Virus record (IMG/VR): IMGVR_UViG_3300038701_001110
Span: 1-63,042 of that record
Strand: one strand, 5' to 3'
DNA length: 63,042 bases
DNA from: a virus
Positions within the stretch are counted from its first letter, which is position 1. Each line of letters starts with the position of its first letter. The position numbers were made by a program, and so were the translations under genes. Positions 5,177 to 44,051 of the stretch are shown here, in pieces. The notes beneath the pieces were generated by a model. That model was not told the DNA's origin, ran no database searches, and worked only from the letters and a program-made list of their open reading frames with translations.

Positions 5177-5674
5177 ATGGTTCAACCTACCGGTGAGGGA
5201 AACACAGCGTATCAACATGGCCATTCAAGAAGGGGGAATAAGAGCACACTATACATACGTTGGCAAAATATGAAGGCTCGATGCCATCAGCCTTCCAACA
5301 AAGACTACCCCAGATATGGTGCGGTTGGTATCACAGTGTGTGACCGTTGGCGTTACGGTGAGAACGGGGTTAGCGGCTTCTCTCTATTCTTGGAGGACAT
5401 GGGGGAGCCGCCTTTCCCGTCAGCAAGCATCGACAGGATCGACGGAAGCAAAGGATACTGCGCCGAAAACTGCCGGTGGGCGGACGTTCAAACCCAGACA
5501 GTGAACAGGCGCACCACCAAGTGGCTTACCATAGATGGAGAGACCAAACCCTTGACCGAATGGGCGAGGCAAGTTGGTGTCGGACCAAAGACAATCCACT
5601 ACAGGCTCAAGAAAGGTTTGAGCCACAAAGATGCAGTTTTCCTACCCACGGATCGTGGGAGGAGACTCAGATAG
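5177..5674 (+). CDS. Homing-endonuclease-like DNA-binding protein, 165 aa; N-terminal domain paralogous to 16170-16835
   Basis: Pattern YxxWxxMKxRCxxPxxxxYxxYGxxGITVCDRW...F..DMG...SIDRID....Y...NCRWA..Q..NRR, shared with the polymerase-inserted gene. C-terminal HTH-like segment. Visibly lower GC than its neighbours. Confidence 0.6.
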   Translation: MVQPTGEGNTAYQHGHSRRGNKSTLYIRWQNMKARCHQPSNKDYPRYGAVGITVCDRWRYGENGVSGFSLFLEDMGEPPFPSASIDRIDGSKGYCAENCRWADVQTQTVNRRTTKWLTIDGETKPLTEWARQVGVGPKTIHYRLKKGLSHKDAVFLPTDRGRRLR

Positions 5675-14502: not shown

Positions 14503-15032
14503 TGCACTACATGATCGACCTTGAGACGATGGGCACAGCGCCCGGTTCCGCCATCGTGGCTATCGGCGCCGTGGCGTTCGACGCAGAGAAGATCCACGAC
14601 ACCTTCTACCAAACGGTGTCTCTCGAGAGTTCCGTGGCTTGGGGCCTGACCGTGGATGCCAGCACCGTCATGTGGTGGATGCAGCAGAGCGACGCGGCGC
14701 GCGCCGAGATCTGCGATCCGATGTGCTACAACCTGAAACATACGCTGCAAATTATGCGCACATGGACGCGAATGGAGGGCAAAGATATTTCCGGCGTGTG
14801 GGGCAACGGCGCCACGTTCGATAACGTGCTGATCCGCGTAGCCATGGAGAAGACGGGGGTCACACCGCCGTGGAAGTTCTGGCAGGACAAGTGCTATCGC
14901 ACGGTCAAGGGTGCCCACCCTGAGATCGACATCGTGAAGGAAGGCACGGCGCACAAGGCCATCGACGATGCCCTCTCTCAGGCGAAGCACCTGATGGTCA
15001 TCAACAAGTCGGCCGGGGGGATCTACCTTTGA
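14499..15032 (+). CDS. DEDDh 3'-5' exonuclease, 177 aa
   Basis: Exo I MIDLET, Exo II WGNGATFDNVL, Exo III HKAIDDALSQA. Confidence 0.8.
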   Translation: MMHYMIDLETMGTAPGSAIVAIGAVAFDAEKIHDTFYQTVSLESSVAWGLTVDASTVMWWMQQSDAARAEICDPMCYNLKHTLQIMRTWTRMEGKDISGVWGNGATFDNVLIRVAMEKTGVTPPWKFWQDKCYRTVKGAHPEIDIVKEGTAHKAIDDALSQAKHLMVINKSAGGIYL

Positions 15033-16144
15033 CCAAGACACCCATCTTTCTCGATATCGAGGTCTACAAGAACTACTTCTTGGCGACGTTCATGACAGAG
15101 GATGGACGTGCCAAGATGTACGAAATCTTCAACGGGGACGCTTCGGCGTTCCCGTCCAACGAGATCTACGATCTTCTGCGCCGTGACGATATCGAGATCG
15201 TGACATTCAACGGCAACCACTACGACATCCCACTGCTGACCCTCACGCTTCTGAACAGAGACACGTTCATGACCAAGCGGGAGAGTGATCGCATCATCAA
15301 CTACAACATCCGCTCGTGGAACTTCTACCGGGACAACGGTATCTCCGAGCCCCAGATAAACCACGTCGACCTGATCGAGGTGGCCCCCGGCCGTGTGGGT
15401 CTGAAGCTCTACGGTGGGCGCATGAACTGCCCAAGACTGCAAGAACTGCCGGTGGATCCGTCCGCGACCATAACCGAGGAGCAGAGGAAGCTCCTGCGGC
15501 GCTATTGCAAGAACGACACCGAAGTCACCCGGGAGCTGTACCGCACGCTGCGCAAGCAGCTGGACCTGCGTCGTGAGATGAGCAAGCAGTATGGCGTGGA
15601 CCTGCGGTCAAAGTCTGACGCACAGATCGCCGAGGCCGTGCTGAAGACGGAGTTTCATCGCATCACGGGGGACTGGCCGTCCAAGGTGACGCCGACCTAC
15701 AAGAGCTTCTTCTACCAAGCGCCAGACTACGTCAGCTTCCGCACTGAACCGCTCCGTGAGGTTCTGGACGTCGTCACGTCGGCTGAGATGGTGCTCGACC
15801 CCGACACCGGGCATGTGAAGATGCCCAAGCAGATCTCCGATCTCAAGATCAAGATCGGTGACAGCAACTACAACATCGGCATCGGTGGCCTGCACAGTCA
15901 GGAGTCCGAGGTGACCCATTTCACCGACGACGAGAACGTGCTTCTGGACCGGGATGTGGCGAGCTACTACCCCACGCTGATGCTGAACATGAACATGCAG
16001 CCGGGTGGTTTCGGACAGCACTTCAACACCGTGTATCGACGCATCCTCGTTGATCGTCTGGGGGCAAAGCGCAGAGCGAAAGAATGCCGAGATAGGTTGA
16101 AGGATCTCGAGAAAGAGCTTGCGGAACTTGGTGACAACGCATAA
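15029..16144 (+). CDS. Family-B DNA polymerase, N-terminal fragment (exonuclease domain plus motif A), 371 aa
   Basis: Exo I FLDIEVY, Exo II FNGNHYDIPLL, Pol motif A DRDVASYYPTLM. TTG start overlaps the upstream stop. The ORF stops before motif B. Confidence 0.8.
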   Translation: MTKTPIFLDIEVYKNYFLATFMTEDGRAKMYEIFNGDASAFPSNEIYDLLRRDDIEIVTFNGNHYDIPLLTLTLLNRDTFMTKRESDRIINYNIRSWNFYRDNGISEPQINHVDLIEVAPGRVGLKLYGGRMNCPRLQELPVDPSATITEEQRKLLRRYCKNDTEVTRELYRTLRKQLDLRREMSKQYGVDLRSKSDAQIAEAVLKTEFHRITGDWPSKVTPTYKSFFYQAPDYVSFRTEPLREVLDVVTSAEMVLDPDTGHVKMPKQISDLKIKIGDSNYNIGIGGLHSQESEVTHFTDDENVLLDRDVASYYPTLMLNMNMQPGGFGQHFNTVYRRILVDRLGAKRRAKECRDRLKDLEKELAELGDNA

Positions 16145-16818
16145 TGTGGTAAAACCACAGGAGGTCACAATGGCAAATTCAACGTATCATGAGCGCGGAA
16201 AACTGATCAACGGGATGCACCCTAGGGAGCACCCGAACTACAGCGTGTGGGCCAATATGAAGAGGCGCTGCAATAGTCCAAGCGCGAGCGGCTATAAGAA
16301 CTACGGGGGTCGCGGTATAACCTACGACCCCCGTTGGGAAGACTTCGAACCGTTCTGCATTGATATGGGAGTTCGACCGAGTAGCGAGCACACCATCGAA
16401 CGCATTGACAACGACGGGGACTACAACAAAGCCAACTGCATTTGGGCGGACAAGGCAACTCAGGCTCAGAATCGACGGCGCTTTTCGAACAACACCAGCG
16501 GCAGGACCGGTATCAAAAGGAAAGGCGACAGATATACAGCACAGGTTAACTACAATAAAAAGAGATACAAGGTTGGTGGAACTTTCAAAACCATGGAAGA
16601 GGCACACGCCGCGAGGTTGGCACTGATAGATGCCCTTCGTTCTGGGAAAGACGTGTCGACGATGCTTGAGAGGCCTCCGCGTTACGACTCATCCACTGGC
16701 ATAAGGGGGATTAGTGTGCACAGCAAGGGAGGCTTCATAGTAAGGACGACTGTTGGGGGCGAACGCAAATACCTTGGTTATTTCAAGACACTGAGTGAGG
16801 CTAAAAGGGCGTTGGAAG
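16145..16818 (+). mobile_element. Homing-endonuclease gene insertion that splits the polymerase gene
   Basis: The 674 nt between the two polymerase ORFs are almost fully occupied by an independently translated endonuclease-type ORF with its own AGGAGG RBS, in a third reading frame. Confidence 0.7.
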
Positions 16819-16835
16819 ATGCGAAGCAGGGCTGA
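16170..16835 (+). CDS. Free-standing homing-endonuclease-like protein with two AP2-type DNA-binding repeats, 221 aa
   Basis: The N-terminal domain is paralogous to 5177-5674 (WANMKRRC...YKNYGGRGIT...DMG...IERIDNDGDY..NC.WA..Q..NRR). It is followed by GIKRKGDRYTAQVNYNKKRYKVGGTFKTMEEAHAAR and GISVHSKGGFIVRTTVGGERKYLGYFKTLSEAKRA. Confidence 0.7.
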   Translation: MANSTYHERGKLINGMHPREHPNYSVWANMKRRCNSPSASGYKNYGGRGITYDPRWEDFEPFCIDMGVRPSSEHTIERIDNDGDYNKANCIWADKATQAQNRRRFSNNTSGRTGIKRKGDRYTAQVNYNKKRYKVGGTFKTMEEAHAARLALIDALRSGKDVSTMLERPPRYDSSTGIRGISVHSKGGFIVRTTVGGERKYLGYFKTLSEAKRALEDAKQG

Positions 16836-17748
16836 GATCGAGGCGGAGATGGAACGTCTAAAGGCGGAAATCAAAGAGTGTGAGACCATGGCGGATTCAT
16901 ATAAAATTTCTTTGAACGGGACCTTCGGGAAGACGTCGAGCCAATACAGCACGATCTACTCCCCGAAGTTTATGATCCAGACCACCCTCACCGGGCAGCT
17001 CAGCTTGCTCATGCTGATTGAGGTTCTGGAGCTTGTCGGCATCCCCGTTGTGTCTGCGAACACCGACGGCGTGGTCATCAAGTGTCCGCGCGATAGGCTG
17101 GACGACCTCTCTGCTATCATCGCCAAGTGGGAGAAACGCACCGGGCTCGAGACCGAAGAGACTCGATACGCAGCGCTCTATTCCCGCGACGTGAACAACT
17201 ACATCGCTGTGAAGGAGGACGGCGGTGCCAAGGTAAAGGGTGTGTTCGCCGAACCATCCCTCAGCAAGAACCCGCAGAACCCGATCTGCGCTGAGGCGGT
17301 CGTGCGGCACCTGACCAACGGGGAAGAGATCTCCGATGTGGTGCGCGGATGCAAGGACATCACCAAGTTCCTGACCCTTCGCACGGTGACAGGTGGGGCT
17401 GTGAAGGATGGTCAGCCGCTCGGCAAGGCGATCCGCTGGTATTACTCCGATGGAGAGAAGGGCACGATCAACTACGCCACCAATGGCAACACGGTGCCGA
17501 AGTCGTTCGGCGCCAAGCCGGCGCTGGACCTTCCGGAAAAGTTCCCGTCCGACGTCGACTACGACTGGTATATACGAGAGTGCGGCGAGATCCTCATGGC
17601 AGTCGGCGCGCGCCCTCGGCCAGTGATGGCAAAAATACCTAGAAAGAATAGTAAGGCTTGGAAAGCACTACGTGATGAGGGTAAGATCGTCGAGCAGCCA
17701 GACGGCAAGAAGTGGGTCTGGGCCGAAGGAGAGGGAGTTTTGGGATGA
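16819..17748 (+). CDS. Family-B DNA polymerase, C-terminal fragment (motifs B and C, thumb), 309 aa
   Basis: Motif B KISLNGTFGK and motif C SANTDGV. ATG 16819 lies inside the 3' end of the endonuclease ORF. The track start is GTG 16795. Confidence 0.75.
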   Translation: MRSRAEIEAEMERLKAEIKECETMADSYKISLNGTFGKTSSQYSTIYSPKFMIQTTLTGQLSLLMLIEVLELVGIPVVSANTDGVVIKCPRDRLDDLSAIIAKWEKRTGLETEETRYAALYSRDVNNYIAVKEDGGAKVKGVFAEPSLSKNPQNPICAEAVVRHLTNGEEISDVVRGCKDITKFLTLRTVTGGAVKDGQPLGKAIRWYYSDGEKGTINYATNGNTVPKSFGAKPALDLPEKFPSDVDYDWYIRECGEILMAVGARPRPVMAKIPRKNSKAWKALRDEGKIVEQPDGKKWVWAEGEGVLG

Positions 17749-18230
17749 TCGGACGACTGTTTGGGAAGACAAAGGTAACGACGGAGCGTGCCGAAGACGA
17801 AGGTACGATACCGGAGGGGTGGCAAACCAGATCGCTATCTGAGGCTGAGAGAGAGGCGTTGGAGCAGATTTCGAACCGAACGGTATGGAACGGGTCGCTT
17901 GGTGGGGTCTCCGTAGGCCAACAGGCACACAGCTACAACACAAGCATCCACAACGCAACGACTTACCCTCCAAAGCTGTACCTTGGGAGTGAGGTTCTCA
18001 GTGAAAACATGTTGTCAGTGATTAAGATGTCCGATTGTGCTCACCCGGCTTTGCGCGAGAGCCTTGTTGAAACGCTCATCGCACTTGCCGACAGCGACTC
18101 TGTCTCCGACAGGGCTTTTGCTGTCATGCACAAAGATCTGCCCGAAGCGAAACGGATCATGATGCTTTCGGACGACGATCAGAACGTGGTGGAAATTGCG
18201 AAAACCATTTTGGAGTGGGCAGATGAGTAA
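17745..18230 (+). CDS. Hypothetical protein, 161 aa
   Basis: ATGA overlap with the polymerase stop. GGAGAGGGAG upstream. Confidence 0.7.
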   Translation: MIGRLFGKTKVTTERAEDEGTIPEGWQTRSLSEAEREALEQISNRTVWNGSLGGVSVGQQAHSYNTSIHNATTYPPKLYLGSEVLSENMLSVIKMSDCAHPALRESLVETLIALADSDSVSDRAFAVMHKDLPEAKRIMMLSDDDQNVVEIAKTILEWADE

Positions 18231-18891
18231 GGTAGCACCGTGGTCATTCAGCCGCATCAAGGCGTTCGACACATGTCCGAAGCAGTTCTACCACACGTAT
18301 ATCCTCAAGGAGTTTCCGTATGAGGAGACCGAGGCTATGCGCTATGGGACGGAGTTTCACAAGGCGGCCGAGGACTATATCGGGAAAGGGTCGCCAGTTC
18401 CCGAGCGCTTTGCCTTCGCTCAGCCGATGCTGGATGCACTCAACGCCAAGCCCGGCACAAAGCACTGCGAGCTTAAGTTCGGACTGACGCGCAACCTCGA
18501 GCCGTGCGGGTTCTTTGACTCTGATGTGTGGTTCCGCGGTGTCGTTGACCTTGCGATCATCGACGGGGACCGCGCGTGGGTGGTCGACTACAAGACCGGC
18601 AAGTCCTCCCGCTATGCCGAGAAGGGTCAGCTTGAACTCATGGCTCTGGCACTGATGGCTCACTTTCCCGAGGTCAAGACAGTCAGCGCTGCGCTCGTGT
18701 TCGTCATCGCCAACGACGTTGTGAAGGTGAAATACGACATCACCGAGCGTGGCGAGATGTGGGCGAAATGGCTTTCAGAGTATGCTAAGATGGAGAAAGC
18801 CGCCGAGACTGGCGTGTGGAACCCGAAATCTTCGGGCCTCTGCCGAGCCCATTGCAAGGTTCTGGAGTGCCCCCACAACGGCAGGAGCTGA
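18223..18891 (+). CDS. PD-(D/E)xK nuclease with Cas4-like Cys cluster, 222 aa
   Basis: FDTCPKQFY near the N-terminus, VVDLAIIDGDRAWVVDYKTGK, and CRAHCKVLECP at the C-terminus. Confidence 0.75.
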   Translation: MSKVAPWSFSRIKAFDTCPKQFYHTYILKEFPYEETEAMRYGTEFHKAAEDYIGKGSPVPERFAFAQPMLDALNAKPGTKHCELKFGLTRNLEPCGFFDSDVWFRGVVDLAIIDGDRAWVVDYKTGKSSRYAEKGQLELMALALMAHFPEVKTVSAALVFVIANDVVKVKYDITERGEMWAKWLSEYAKMEKAAETGVWNPKSSGLCRAHCKVLECPHNGRS

Positions 18892-18893
18892 CG

Positions 18894-19184
18894 ATGCCGT
18901 ACAAGAACCCCGAACGAGACCGTAACTACAAGCGGGAGTACAAGCTTCAGCAGGCGAGGGGGGAGAACCCCGCCAGAGCTGAGCGCGCCAAGGCGCGACG
19001 GGCGTTCGACAAGAAGCACGGGCGGAAGGCCCGGGAAGGTCTCGACATCAGCCACAACAAGGCTATCGCCCGTGGTGGGAGCAACTCTGACGGCACGCGC
19101 CTTGAGAGTCCATCGAGCAACCGGGCGCGGGGAGGCGCCATGAGCAAACCACACACGAAGACAAAGCGCCGTCGGCGCTCATAG
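18894..19184 (+). CDS. Small basic protein with HNH-like remnant, 96 aa
   Basis: AGGAG RBS. DISHNKAIARGGSNSDGTRLESPSSNR resembles an HNH core. Very basic tail. Confidence 0.6.
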   Translation: MPYKNPERDRNYKREYKLQQARGENPARAERAKARRAFDKKHGRKAREGLDISHNKAIARGGSNSDGTRLESPSSNRARGGAMSKPHTKTKRRRRS

Positions 19185-19202
19185 TTATACGCCTCGTATA
19201 AC
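19184..19202 (+). promoter_or_regulatory. Early-arm palindrome copy
   Basis: GTTATACG-CCT-CGTATAAC; ends 13 nt before ATG 19216. Preceded by the hairpin AGCGCC-GTC-GGCGCT. Confidence 0.7.
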
Positions 19203-19215
19203 CAAAGGAGAGACC

Positions 19216-20748
19216 ATGGAGATCGTGGACAACAAGGCGTTGCGCCTGAAGCTGCGCAACCCTCAGCAGGTGCTGACCACCATACCGGAAAGCCGGGCCA
19301 TCGGGCCCAACGAAGTCCTCGTCAAGTGGGATGTGCCTCAGGTGCACCGCTTGCGGAGCATGAACATCGACGTGCCTTCTCCGATCCAGCGCTACAACTG
19401 GCCGGGAAAATACAAACCGTTCGAGCATCAGAAGGTGACCGCGGAGTTCTTGGTGAACAACCCGAAGGCGTTTTGCTTCTCGGACATGGGGACCGGGAAG
19501 ACCGCCTCTGCGATATGGGCGGCAGACTTTCTCATGACGCGGGGTATCATAAACCGGGCGCTGATCTTGTGCCCTGTTTCGATCATGGACGCAGCGTGGA
19601 GAGCGGACCTGTTTTCATTCGCCATGCACAGGAAGGTCGACATCGCGCACGGCTCCGCCGACAAGCGGCGCAAAGTCATAGCCAGCGATGCGGAGTTTGT
19701 CATCATCAACTTCGACGGCACCAAGGTTGTGAAGGATGAGATCGCGAACGGCGGGTTCGACCTGATCATTGTGGACGAGGCAAGTGCGTATAAGACGGCG
19801 ACCACACAGCGCTGGAAGACCCTGAAAAGCCTTATCGGTCCGGACACATGGCTCTGGATGATGACGGGGACACCTGCCGCACAGGGGCCGCAGGATGCCT
19901 ATGGTCTAGCAAAGCTGGTCAATCCGGCTGGCCTGCCTCGCACATTCGCTGGTTACAGGGACATGGTGATGTACAAGGTCACCCAGTTCAAGTGGGAGCC
20001 GAAACCGAACGCAACCGACACCGTTCACCAGATACTACAACCGGCCATCCGCTTCGCAAAGGAAGACTGCCTCGACCTGCCAGAGATGACCTACGTGGAT
20101 AGGCACGTCGAGCTGACCCCGCAGCAGCGGGCCTATTACAACAAGCTTCGGAAACAGCTCCTCATGCAGGCGGCAGGCGAGACAGTCACAGCTGCGAATG
20201 CAGCGGTGGCGATGAACAAGCTTCTCCAGATCAGCTGTGGCGCTGTCTACACCGACGACGGGAACACCTTGGAGTTCGACATCAAGAACCGCTACTCGGT
20301 GCTGAAGGAGGTTGTCGACGAATCCGCCAACAAGGTCATCGTGTTCGTCCCGTTTCAGAGTAGCATCGAGGCGCTGTCGGCGAAGCTGAACAGCGATGGT
20401 GTGACGGCCGAGATCATCAACGGCTCCGTCCCTGCCGGGAAGCGGACAGAGATCTTCAAGAAGTTCCAGACAGAGACACACCCGCAGGTGCTTGTCGTGC
20501 AGCCTCAGGCCGCCGCGCACGGCGTCACTCTGACAGCGGCGGACACAATCGTGTGGTGGTCACCGACCCCCTCTCTTGAGATTTACTCTCAGGCCAACGC
20601 CCGCATCCACAGGTCCGGTCAGAAGAACAAGTGCACCGTCGTGAAGCTAGGCGGATCTGCTGTGGAGAGGAAGCTGTACGACATGCTGGACAAGAAGCTC
20701 GACGCGCAGTCGAAAATCATCAAACTCTACGAAGAAATACTTGCGTAG
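19216..20748 (+). CDS. SNF2-family (SF2) helicase, 510 aa
   Basis: Motif I DMGTGKT, motif II IVDEASAYK, motif VI QANARIHRSGQKN. Confidence 0.85.
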   Translation: MEIVDNKALRLKLRNPQQVLTTIPESRAIGPNEVLVKWDVPQVHRLRSMNIDVPSPIQRYNWPGKYKPFEHQKVTAEFLVNNPKAFCFSDMGTGKTASAIWAADFLMTRGIINRALILCPVSIMDAAWRADLFSFAMHRKVDIAHGSADKRRKVIASDAEFVIINFDGTKVVKDEIANGGFDLIIVDEASAYKTATTQRWKTLKSLIGPDTWLWMMTGTPAAQGPQDAYGLAKLVNPAGLPRTFAGYRDMVMYKVTQFKWEPKPNATDTVHQILQPAIRFAKEDCLDLPEMTYVDRHVELTPQQRAYYNKLRKQLLMQAAGETVTAANAAVAMNKLLQISCGAVYTDDGNTLEFDIKNRYSVLKEVVDESANKVIVFVPFQSSIEALSAKLNSDGVTAEIINGSVPAGKRTEIFKKFQTETHPQVLVVQPQAAAHGVTLTAADTIVWWSPTPSLEIYSQANARIHRSGQKNKCTVVKLGGSAVERKLYDMLDKKLDAQSKIIKLYEEILA

Positions 20749-43523: not shown

Positions 43524-44051
43524 ATGGACGCGGTAGAACTTGCAACCCTTGTAGCATACGACCCGCTAACAGGGCAACTGACCTACTTGGAGAGGCCGAG
43601 AGCTTACTTCAAAAGCGATACGTCATGGAAGACTTGGAACACTAGGTTTTCAGGACGTCCTGCCATGAACGTAAAAAGTTTAAGGGGCTACCTTGTTGGG
43701 CGGGTCAACAGCGTAAGCATGAAAGCGCATCGCGCCGCATGGGCCCTCCACTATGGCGAGTGGCCAAAGCACGAGATTGATCACATCAACGGAAACAAGA
43801 TGGACAACCGCATAGAGAACCTGAGGGACGTTCAAACCCTTGAGAACGGCAAAAACAGACCAAAGCAAATAAATAACACAAGCGGGGTAACGGGCGTCGG
43901 CTACAGCCAAGCAAAAGGCAAGTGGTTTGCGCGTATAAAGGTTAACCAAAAGCTAATTCATCTCGGTCACTTCAGCACGAAAGAGGAGGCCACACACCGC
44001 AGGCTTGTGGCCGAAAGCCGTTATGGGTTCACCAAAAGGCACGGAAAGTAA
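43524..44051 (+). CDS. HNH homing endonuclease with AP2-type DNA-binding domain, 175 aa
   Basis: HEIDHINGNKMDNRIENLR (HNH core), then GVGYSQAKGKWFARIKVNQKLIHLGHFSTKEEA (AP2-like). AGGAG RBS. Opposite strand to all surrounding late genes; lower GC. Confidence 0.8.
   Translation: MDAVELATLVAYDPLTGQLTYLERPRAYFKSDTSWKTWNTRFSGRPAMNVKSLRGYLVGRVNSVSMKAHRAAWALHYGEWPKHEIDHINGNKMDNRIENLRDVQTLENGKNRPKQINNTSGVTGVGYSQAKGKWFARIKVNQKLIHLGHFSTKEEATHRRLVAESRYGFTKRHGK

Follow-up and report, generated by a model that had tools for sequence, protein, structure and literature searches.

A putative mobile cassette with an HNH endonuclease gene and helix-coding ends divides the family-B DNA polymerase gene of a phage

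Background

Replicative polymerase genes that are naturally in two pieces have been described in T4-like phages. According to summaries of Petrov et al. 2006 (PMC2988022, PMC3061061), gp43 is split at the tip of the fingers in the Aeromonas and Acinetobacter phages 25, 31, 44RR, 65, and 133, and seg43(25) lies between the cistrons 43A and 43B of phage 25. The halves of split gp43 co-purify and are active; whether an endonuclease caused the split is unclear (PMC2988022). A locus of a related kind is described here from the IMG/VR virus record IMGVR_UViG_3300038701_001110. The window, meaning the whole stretch of DNA that was analysed, is a complete viral genome of 63,042 bp with direct terminal repeats, in which a free-standing HNH endonuclease gene lies between the two halves of a DNA polymerase gene, polB.

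Endonuclease genes interrupt other enzymes as well. In phage Aeh1, mobE splits nrdA, and the tails derived from the insertion are essential in the split NrdA (Crona et al. 2011, PMC3045599). The authors proposed insertion-derived tails as a general way to neutralise the fragmentation of genes (PMC3045599). An engineered Pfu polymerase split at the finger tip behaves like the wild type (Hansen et al. 2011, PMC3061061). In the fractured genes, split inteins are combined with an intervening endonuclease gene (Dassa et al. 2009, PMC2677866).

The locus in the window resembles gene 43 in that a family-B replicative polymerase is encoded by two cistrons split at the finger tip, as 43A and 43B are, with an endonuclease gene between the cistrons in one gene 43 case. 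It differs in belonging to a distantly related polymerase lineage, phrog_1252, and in having an HNH/AP2 endonuclease where gene 43 has a seg-type GIY-YIG enzyme. Unlike the situation in gene 43, the cassette is present at one exact site in many lineages beside unsplit sisters, and it carries conserved heptad tails. With nrdA-a/mobE/nrdA-b of Aeh1 (Friedrich et al. 2007; PMC3045599) it shares an HNH gene that splits the gene of an essential enzyme, as well as new C-terminal and N-terminal tails that stem from inserted DNA of lower GC content, those of Aeh1 being needed for function. The target in Aeh1 is, however, ribonucleotide reductase, and its tails, which are found in one phage only, are short, carry opposite charges, and act in the dimerisation of heterodimers. 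The tails described here are instead predicted heptad helices of matched length, which appear to travel with the cassette through many phages and to extend an existing helical hairpin.

Split Pfu polymerase likewise has termination and re-initiation near the family-B finger tip, and its fragments restore activity like that of the wild type, but this split is artificial and has neither an endonuclease gene nor added helices. The fractured genes have the same gene order as the locus and occur in replication genes of environmental phage-like DNA. Their halves are ligated by protein trans-splicing, whereas here there are no intein blocks and the extensions are predicted helices of 23-24 residues. 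The arrangement is of a known kind, that of endonuclease-split genes, and appears to differ in the polymerase lineage, in the endonuclease family, and above all in that the cassette and the tails seem to form a single mobile unit.

The best explanation of the locus, at a probability of roughly 0.8, is a polymerase of two subunits that was split by a mobile endonuclease cassette and that would be reassembled through its native interface together with a coiled coil brought by the cassette. An earlier note on this DNA, made from the letters alone, had described a free-standing endonuclease gene splitting a family-B polymerase between motifs A and B, with an intron core or an intein seeming unlikely. 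Protein family profiles, fold matches, an Rfam scan, an allele that has lost the endonuclease gene, and the recurrence of the arrangement in other phages, where every catalytic motif is intact, all support that description.

Results and discussion

Anatomy of the split gene

Three open reading frames (ORFs) in the same orientation, each in a frame of its own, make up the locus (15029-16144, 16170-16835, and 16819-17748, all on the + strand). The first of these, the polB N-half (15029-16144), begins with TTG and encodes 371 amino acids (aa), which cover the exonuclease domain with Exo I to III, the N-terminal palm with motif A, and the first finger helix. Its C-terminus reads ...KDLEKELAELGDNA, or in a longer reading ...RLKDLEKELAELGDNA, directly before the stop codon. 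The last, the polB C-half (16819-17748), encodes 309 aa from its ATG, with the second finger helix and motif B, the palm with motif C, and the thumb. These two ORFs had been taken for halves of one polymerase in the earlier note, and both do match the PHROG DNA polymerase family phrog_1252, the N-half at profile positions 52-404 (E 9e-89) and the C-half at positions 388-653 (E 7e-92). Polymerases of this family are about 630 aa long and have very short fingers. The two halves are the only matches to phrog_1252 in the complete genome, and a search of it for a family-A polymerase (PolA) found none. The split gene is therefore the sole DNA polymerase gene of the phage.

From the stop of the N-half to the ATG of the C-half there are 674 nt (16145-16818). 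The earlier note had this length right, but not the statement that 666 nt of it are the endonuclease ORF. That ORF has 666 nt including its stop, of which 649 nt lie inside the gap and the last 17 nt overlap the C-half; a spacer of 25 nt precedes it. As the note had also said, the endonuclease ORF is in the third frame and has a Shine-Dalgarno (SD) sequence of its own, AGGAGG at 16159-16164, 5 nt ahead of its ATG. The SD of the C-half sits within the endonuclease coding sequence, and in several relatives it is a strong one, GGAGG 10 nt upstream of the start. No terminator-like site was found on the + strand between the halves. At the other end of the locus, the TTG of the N-half overlaps the stop of the upstream Rv2179c-like exonuclease gene (TTGA, 15029-15032), and the unsplit allele P0001, described below, starts identically.

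The split gene encodes a family-B DNA polymerase of the phrog_1252 group. Exo I (DIEVY), Exo II (FNGNHYDIP), and motif A (DRDVASYYP) were all located in the N-half, and motif B (KISLNGTFGK) and motif C (SANTDG) in the C-half, where they had been placed before; Exo III (YCKNDT), in the N-half, is an addition to that list. In alignments of relatives the residues of the exonuclease motifs are invariant or nearly so, and the family-specific variants of motifs A, B, and C are invariant. Motifs B and C align with their counterparts in S. solfataricus PolB1 (1s5j). A profile made from eight uninterrupted relatives gave 25 matches in the PDB, every one of which is a family-B polymerase, including S. 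solfataricus PolB1 1s5j (the best, 8e-7), E. coli Pol II, KOD/9°N, and Pol alpha. The Pfam model DNA_pol_B was not matched by the halves, and DNA_pol_B_exo2 was matched only weakly. The polymerase is therefore a divergent family-B lineage.

Predicted structures agree with this assignment. AlphaFold2 (AF2) models of the N-half and the C-half have a predicted local distance difference test (pLDDT) score of 83.9 and 81.2, respectively. When the C-half model was compared with the PDB using Foldseek, all of the top 50 matches were family-B polymerases, with E-values down to 9e-6. For the N-half the best matches were 5mdn (P. calidifontis PolB) and Pol epsilon, chains with an RNase H fold ranking lower. 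The template modelling (TM) scores of these matches are modest (0.36-0.46), halves having been compared with whole enzymes. Low confidence in the models is confined to the motif A strands (284-310) when the N-half is modelled alone and to motif B (27-38) when the C-half is modelled alone, as is expected if each half needs its partner.

Insertion site

None of the eight nearest IMG/VR relatives, at 60-67% identity, has an interrupted gene. A larger protein search identified P0001, an uninterrupted allele of 639 aa from a metagenome (contig L018), to which the N-half is 97-98% identical up to residue 348. In the comparison of the DNA of the window with that of L018 by blastn and alignment, homology ends at 16072 with GGG GCA AAG CGC (G A K R). 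It picks up at 16903 by blastn and becomes unbroken identity from 16912 (TTG AAC GGG). The putative mobile cassette as a whole is therefore placed at 16073-16911 (+ strand, 839 nt), where the GC content also dips, being 0.48-0.55 over the cassette and 0.57-0.62 in the flanks. It contains the tail of the N-half, the stop, the spacer with its SD, the HNH/AP2 endonuclease gene, the head of the C-half, and 7 recoded codons of the second finger helix. These 839 nt replace 39 nt of the unsplit allele that encode the finger-tip turn, SGDKVTADSLKIV; the L018-type empty site reads …GCCAAGCGCTCGGGCGACAAGGTGACCGCCGACTCGCTCAAGATTGTCTTGAAC…. Host codons for SGDKVT have been replaced by the cassette, and no host residue is duplicated.

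The comparison with uninterrupted homologues, which the earlier note had proposed, thus fixes the breakpoint at 16073-16911 without duplicated residues. It also speaks against the suggestion that the similar termini of the two halves hint at a target-site duplication, the empty allele showing replacement instead. The 17-position overlap of the PHROG ranges of the halves, and an ungapped line-up of ERLKA with DRLSA of unsplit relatives, had suggested such a duplication. It was rejected on account of the 97-98% identical empty allele and of the other split alleles, in none of which the resemblance between ERLKA(E) and DRLGA(K) is present, and is put down to chance resemblance of helices rich in K, E, and L.

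Of the 120 best clusters, which are 90% representatives, 103 are unsplit proteins, and in every one of these the segment between RLxAK and LKI is 10 residues long. Alignment with solved enzymes identifies this segment, which lies immediately upstream of motif B, as the turn that connects the two finger helices.

At the right end of the cassette, the recoded codons for ADSYKIS (16891-16911, + strand) are homologous to those for ADSLKIV in the unsplit allele. In a codon comparison 9 of their 21 nt have changed, whereas the flank is about 95% identical. They are probably a remnant of the endonuclease target that was made resistant, or that was co-converted from the donor. The same pattern of recoding recurs in both of the other pairs of filled and empty alleles described below.

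Recurrence in related phages

Split N-halves of 365-370 aa account for 17 of the 120 best clusters. Their tails begin right after AK(H/R) and are 22-27 residues long (22-24 in 16 of the 17 clusters), and are of either the type ...ELxxRIKELEKELAKC.. or the type ...DLLxEKxxLxKLLDEM.... Contexts were recovered for eight split alleles. Seven of the eight (L019, L020, L021, L022, L024, L027, and L032) share the layout of the window, with the N-half, an endonuclease gene (221-239 aa), and the C-half, and the eighth (L023) is without the endonuclease gene. In all seven the ATG of the C-half falls within the closing 14-65 nt of the endonuclease gene (in five of them, 17 nt ahead of the stop codon), and the start of the C-half is conserved in the other cassettes as MR(S/T)RAE or MQS.... 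Since eight independent assemblies from other samples share this architecture, the arrangement is not an accident of assembly. The contig of one further split allele, P0111, stops at the stop codon of the N-half, and its context is uninformative.

A tree was made from the polymerase body upstream of the junction, using 121 rows and 345 columns in a quick search. To explain its 18 split rows, 18 changes of state are required; well-supported branches force at least 15 of them, and the nearest neighbour of almost every split row is unsplit. There are three near-identical pairs of filled and empty alleles, namely window/L018, L027/L028 (98% identical flanks), and L019/L029 (94%). The insertion site is identical in L027/L028 and L019/L029, and the left boundary of the foreign DNA varies from 0 to about 45 nt, which is what double-strand-break repair with variable co-conversion gives. 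Presence or absence of the cassette is polymorphic at one precise site in near-identical genes with co-converted flanks. The scatter of split alleles over the polymerase tree beside unsplit sisters indicates homing.

No relative of the endonuclease above 55% identity was found in IMG/VR viral contigs, or above about 45% identity in GenBank phages, and the tail peptide had no match among GenBank phages. With no close endonuclease relatives and no tail match in GenBank phages, the cassette is so far known only from metagenomes. The GenBank phages PSV3 and PAB2 were considered as cases of a similar polymerase split and rejected; their breaks are elsewhere and look like frameshifts or breaks in annotation.

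Loss of the endonuclease gene

The L023 allele (P0080, about 60% identical) has the N-half with its tail, a 52-nt spacer, and then the C-half with its head, and the two ORFs remain in different frames. In the frame of the lost gene the spacer reads KYLGYFTDFKLAKKAREEW (KYLGYF...), which corresponds in register to the final 17 codons of the window's endonuclease gene, KYLGYFKTLSEAKRALEDAKQG, and it runs into the same ATG. This remnant indicates that the endonuclease gene was deleted, while the polymerase gene stayed split and kept its two tails as well as a good SD ahead of the C-half.

The L023 allele bears on the idea that a self-splicing intron of group I or II, or translational bypass, restores one full-length polymerase. 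Group I introns with HNH endonuclease ORFs do occur in phage polymerase genes of the SPO1 type, and Rfam models can miss divergent introns with large ORF insertions. An Rfam scan of 15500-17500 with E up to 10 nonetheless found no intron, its only match being a meaningless one to a microRNA (miRNA). The gap offers merely 25 nt outside the endonuclease ORF, and the sequence flanking that ORF is conserved as heptad-patterned coding sequence, with the stop and the start also conserved. In L023 the spacer has shrunk to its ORF remnant, yet there are still two ORFs. The L023 allele and the empty Rfam scan together dispose of the intron, and a full-length product made in either of these ways is very improbable.

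The halves might instead be joined after translation by a split intein, as in the fractured genes of metagenomes, which share the order of half-gene, endonuclease gene, and half-gene (PMC2677866). The extensions at this locus are just 23 and 24 residues, however, against about 100 aa for an N-intein and about 35-40 aa for a C-intein, and they are predicted as single helices. They have no match to Hint or intein families, there is no terminal His-Asn before Cys, Ser, or Thr where head and body join (ETM followed by ADS), and there is no pattern of a Cys, Ser, or Ala nucleophile between AKR and RAK. Short helical extensions without intein motifs dispose of the split intein, the chance of which is close to nil. 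The opinion in the earlier note that an intron core or an intein is unlikely is thus borne out by the empty Rfam scan, by the length of the L023 spacer, and by the lack of an intein signal.

An insertion within the core of an essential gene usually destroys it, and the polymerase gene might have been inactivated, the phage then relying on the polymerase of its host or being defective. The earlier note had allowed for a pseudogene if essential residues were missing relative to uninterrupted homologues, but every invariant residue of the family is present in the two halves. There are at least 18 split alleles, with bodies that are 52-80% identical to each other, and all are open and full-length. 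In addition, the polymerase gene has stayed split where the endonuclease gene was lost, and the complete genome, with its terminal repeats, has no other polymerase. On these grounds it is highly improbable that the gene is a pseudogene.

Terminal helices

The N-half tail (16073-16141, + strand) is RAKECRDRLKDLEKELAELGDNA, 23 cassette-borne codons that prolong the first finger helix. The C-half head (16819-16890, + strand) is MRSRAEIEAEMERLKAEIKECETM, 24 cassette-borne codons that extend the second finger helix backwards. Neither is in the unsplit allele, and both are located in the low-GC cassette. The tail is 22-24 residues long in 17 of 18 split alleles and 27 in P0111, and the head is always 24 codons. 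Tail positions 3, 6, 10, 13, 17, and 20 after AK are hydrophobic in 80-100% of the 18 tails; among eight heads, positions 7, 11, 14, and 18 are hydrophobic in 90-100%, and position 21 in 60%. The core positions of tail and head sum to 27-28, which is the register expected for antiparallel helices of equal length rising from the base of the fingers. The pair closest to the finger base is tail Cys6 and head Cys21 in the window. AF2 predicts one unbroken helix over N-half residues 329-366 and a helix over C-half residues 4-27. By a count from the sequence, the tail and head helices are not of opposite charge. Tail and head probably form an antiparallel two-helix coiled coil that would help the halves to reassociate. 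That the terminal helices may help reassociation had been suggested in the earlier note, and the conserved length, the heptad pattern, and the predicted helicity speak for it as a prediction.

The uncorrected ratio of non-synonymous to synonymous differences (pN/pS) of the tail and head is 0.5-0.6, with pN at about 0.43 and pS saturated at 0.7-0.8. Within the tail, the codons GAG CTT (E16 L17; 16115-16120) are identical in nucleotide sequence in all seven of the cassettes compared, surrounding synonymous sites being saturated.

The split polymerase could also be functional with the tail and head as neutral leftovers of the insertion, assembly then depending on the native interface of palm and fingers alone. 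Pfu polymerase split at the finger tip works without added helices (PMC3061061), the tails of Aeh1 NrdA are not required for heterodimer formation (PMC3045599), and the tail sequences here are only moderately conserved, judging from the pN given above. Against this, the lengths are fixed, and the heptad core is 80-100% conserved while the endonucleases are only 50-77% identical. L023 keeps the tail and the head after losing the endonuclease gene. If they were neutral, their lengths would be expected to drift or earlier stops to appear, and this alternative is considered unlikely.

Proposed mechanism

In the preferred explanation, that of a two-subunit polymerase split by a mobile cassette, the cassette would have invaded the polymerase gene at the DNA for the turn between the two finger helices. 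It would supply 23 codons and a stop as an extension of the first finger helix, a free-standing HNH/AP2 homing-endonuclease gene that brings an SD of its own, and, within the 3' end of this gene and running just past it, a new start codon and 24 codons by which the second finger helix is extended. Two polypeptides would then make up the polymerase, one of 371 aa with the exonuclease, motif A, and helix 1, and one of 309 aa with helix 2 and motif B, motif C, and the thumb. These would reassemble non-covalently through the native interface of palm and fingers, aided by the amphipathic cassette helices in an antiparallel two-helix coiled coil atop the fingers. During co-infection the endonuclease would cut the empty site of unsplit alleles, and the whole cassette, tails included, would spread into them through double-strand-break repair.

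As in other genes in pieces, close relatives have the polymerase gene in one continuous stretch, whereas here an endonuclease gene divides it and leaves both pieces intact, and novel terminal tails have been gained from the inserted DNA. Persistence of the split in many lineages, and after loss of the endonuclease gene, gives indirect support for the assembly of the halves into an active enzyme. The earlier note had likened the locus to the T4-like gene 43 splits in expecting two polypeptides. The evidence favours this expectation, with the synthesis of the two proteins deduced from the reading frames.

Several points weigh against this explanation. What is said of transcripts, proteins, and activity, for this phage as for its relatives, is drawn from sequence and models, and the pairing in a coiled coil is read from sequence patterns and single-chain models. 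The SD of the C-half in the window is weak (AAGGG, 9 nt upstream), so that the level of translation is uncertain. Core position 6 of the tail is Cys in the window and Leu in the others. As the tails of Aeh1 are not needed for the association of the halves (PMC3045599), those of the cassette could have some other role or no role at all. The tree comes from a quick search over 345 columns, in which gain and loss of the split are indistinguishable.

Endonuclease gene

The free-standing HNH endonuclease gene (16170-16835, + strand) encodes 221 aa with two putative AP2-like DNA-binding repeats. Its protein matches the HNH endonuclease family phrog_374 (E 1e-47), phrog_3377, and several other HNH PHROGs. 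The HNH pattern H...ER(I/V)DN..(G)Y...NC(I/V)WA...QA.N is kept across six orthologues, the alignment of which has 80 invariant columns. There was no match to the Pfam HNH models. Pfam AP2 was likewise unmatched by the endonuclease of the window, and the 55% identical orthologue in L021 is barely above the cut-off (33.6 against 33.3 bits). Relatives in GenBank are annotated as AP2 domain or HNH endonuclease proteins. Endonucleases of the different cassettes share the 50-77% identity mentioned above.

Potential RNA stem-loops surround the ribosome-binding site of the endonuclease gene (16131-16168, + strand), with an inner hairpin of 6 bp at 16145-16159, the SD AGGAGG at 16159-16164, and an outer stem GUGAC/GUCAC. 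Folding gives a minimum free energy of -11.7 kcal/mol (z -1.9), and the feature, which is not conserved in other cassettes, is a weak one. By analogy with what has been described for mobE, the nested stems that bracket the endonuclease SD may damp its translation. The hairpin recalls those of mobE and seg43(25) (PMC2988022), although here it is not conserved.

There are two further free-standing HNH genes in the window, at 5177-5674 (phrog_3377, 4e-47) and at 43524-44051 (phrog_99, 8e-56). The product of the former is 45% identical to the N-terminal part of the polymerase-splitting endonuclease.

Neighbouring insertions

In this phage group, mobile elements of several kinds concentrate in the replication module, which is a hotspot for them. 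Between the C-half and the PD-(D/E)XK nuclease gene of the window there is a 172-aa ORF (17712-18230; insert at about 17749-18221) without a PHROG match. The insert has no counterpart in L018, which is 95% identical, and in all other relatives the nuclease gene directly follows the polymerase. It is therefore a second and unexplained insertion adjoining the split gene. In L027, a gene for 243 aa (2258-2989) lies between the Rv2179c-like exonuclease gene and the polymerase gene, and is absent from the otherwise 96-98% identical L028.

Relatives of window 18196-20748 encode, downstream of the polymerase, an SNF2 helicase of about 800 aa or more. Helicase matches to Hint/Intein_splicing are present in L021 (6698 to the end) and in L022 (7964 to the end), while the 844-aa helicase of L029 (4643 to the end) has no intein match on record. 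The PD-(D/E)XK gene of L021 (4555-6198) encodes 547 aa with a LAGLIDADG match. The copies in the window of the PD-(D/E)XK protein (231 aa) and the helicase (510 aa) are free of intein and LAGLIDADG matches.

Conclusions

Until now, descriptions of endonuclease-split genes have treated them as isolated accidents, confined to a few T4-like phages. In NrdA of Aeh1, the most closely studied of them, the rescuing tails occur in a single genome. The unit found here appears portable, being located at one site in many divergent phages, beside unsplit sisters, and having heptad tails of fixed length. The empty, filled, and decayed alleles form a natural series that illustrates how selfish DNA may permanently turn an enzyme of one chain into one of two subunits. 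The locus also offers a ready-made natural split site with matching helices for the engineering of split family-B polymerases. For annotation, there is a warning that, in these phages, 'hypothetical proteins' of 365-370 aa and 300-310 aa encoded beside an HNH gene are the two pieces of the replicative polymerase.

The chances seem evenly balanced that the endonuclease travels as a self-contained module that both splits and zips, with flanking mini-exons encoding a matched antiparallel coiled coil. If so, homing would both break an essential polymerase gene and supply the clamp that renders the break harmless. This would be a third strategy, free of splicing, beside introns and inteins, by which selfish endonucleases can reside inside core genes. 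The module would then have been caught in the act of spreading through a phage population and of outliving the loss of its endonuclease gene.

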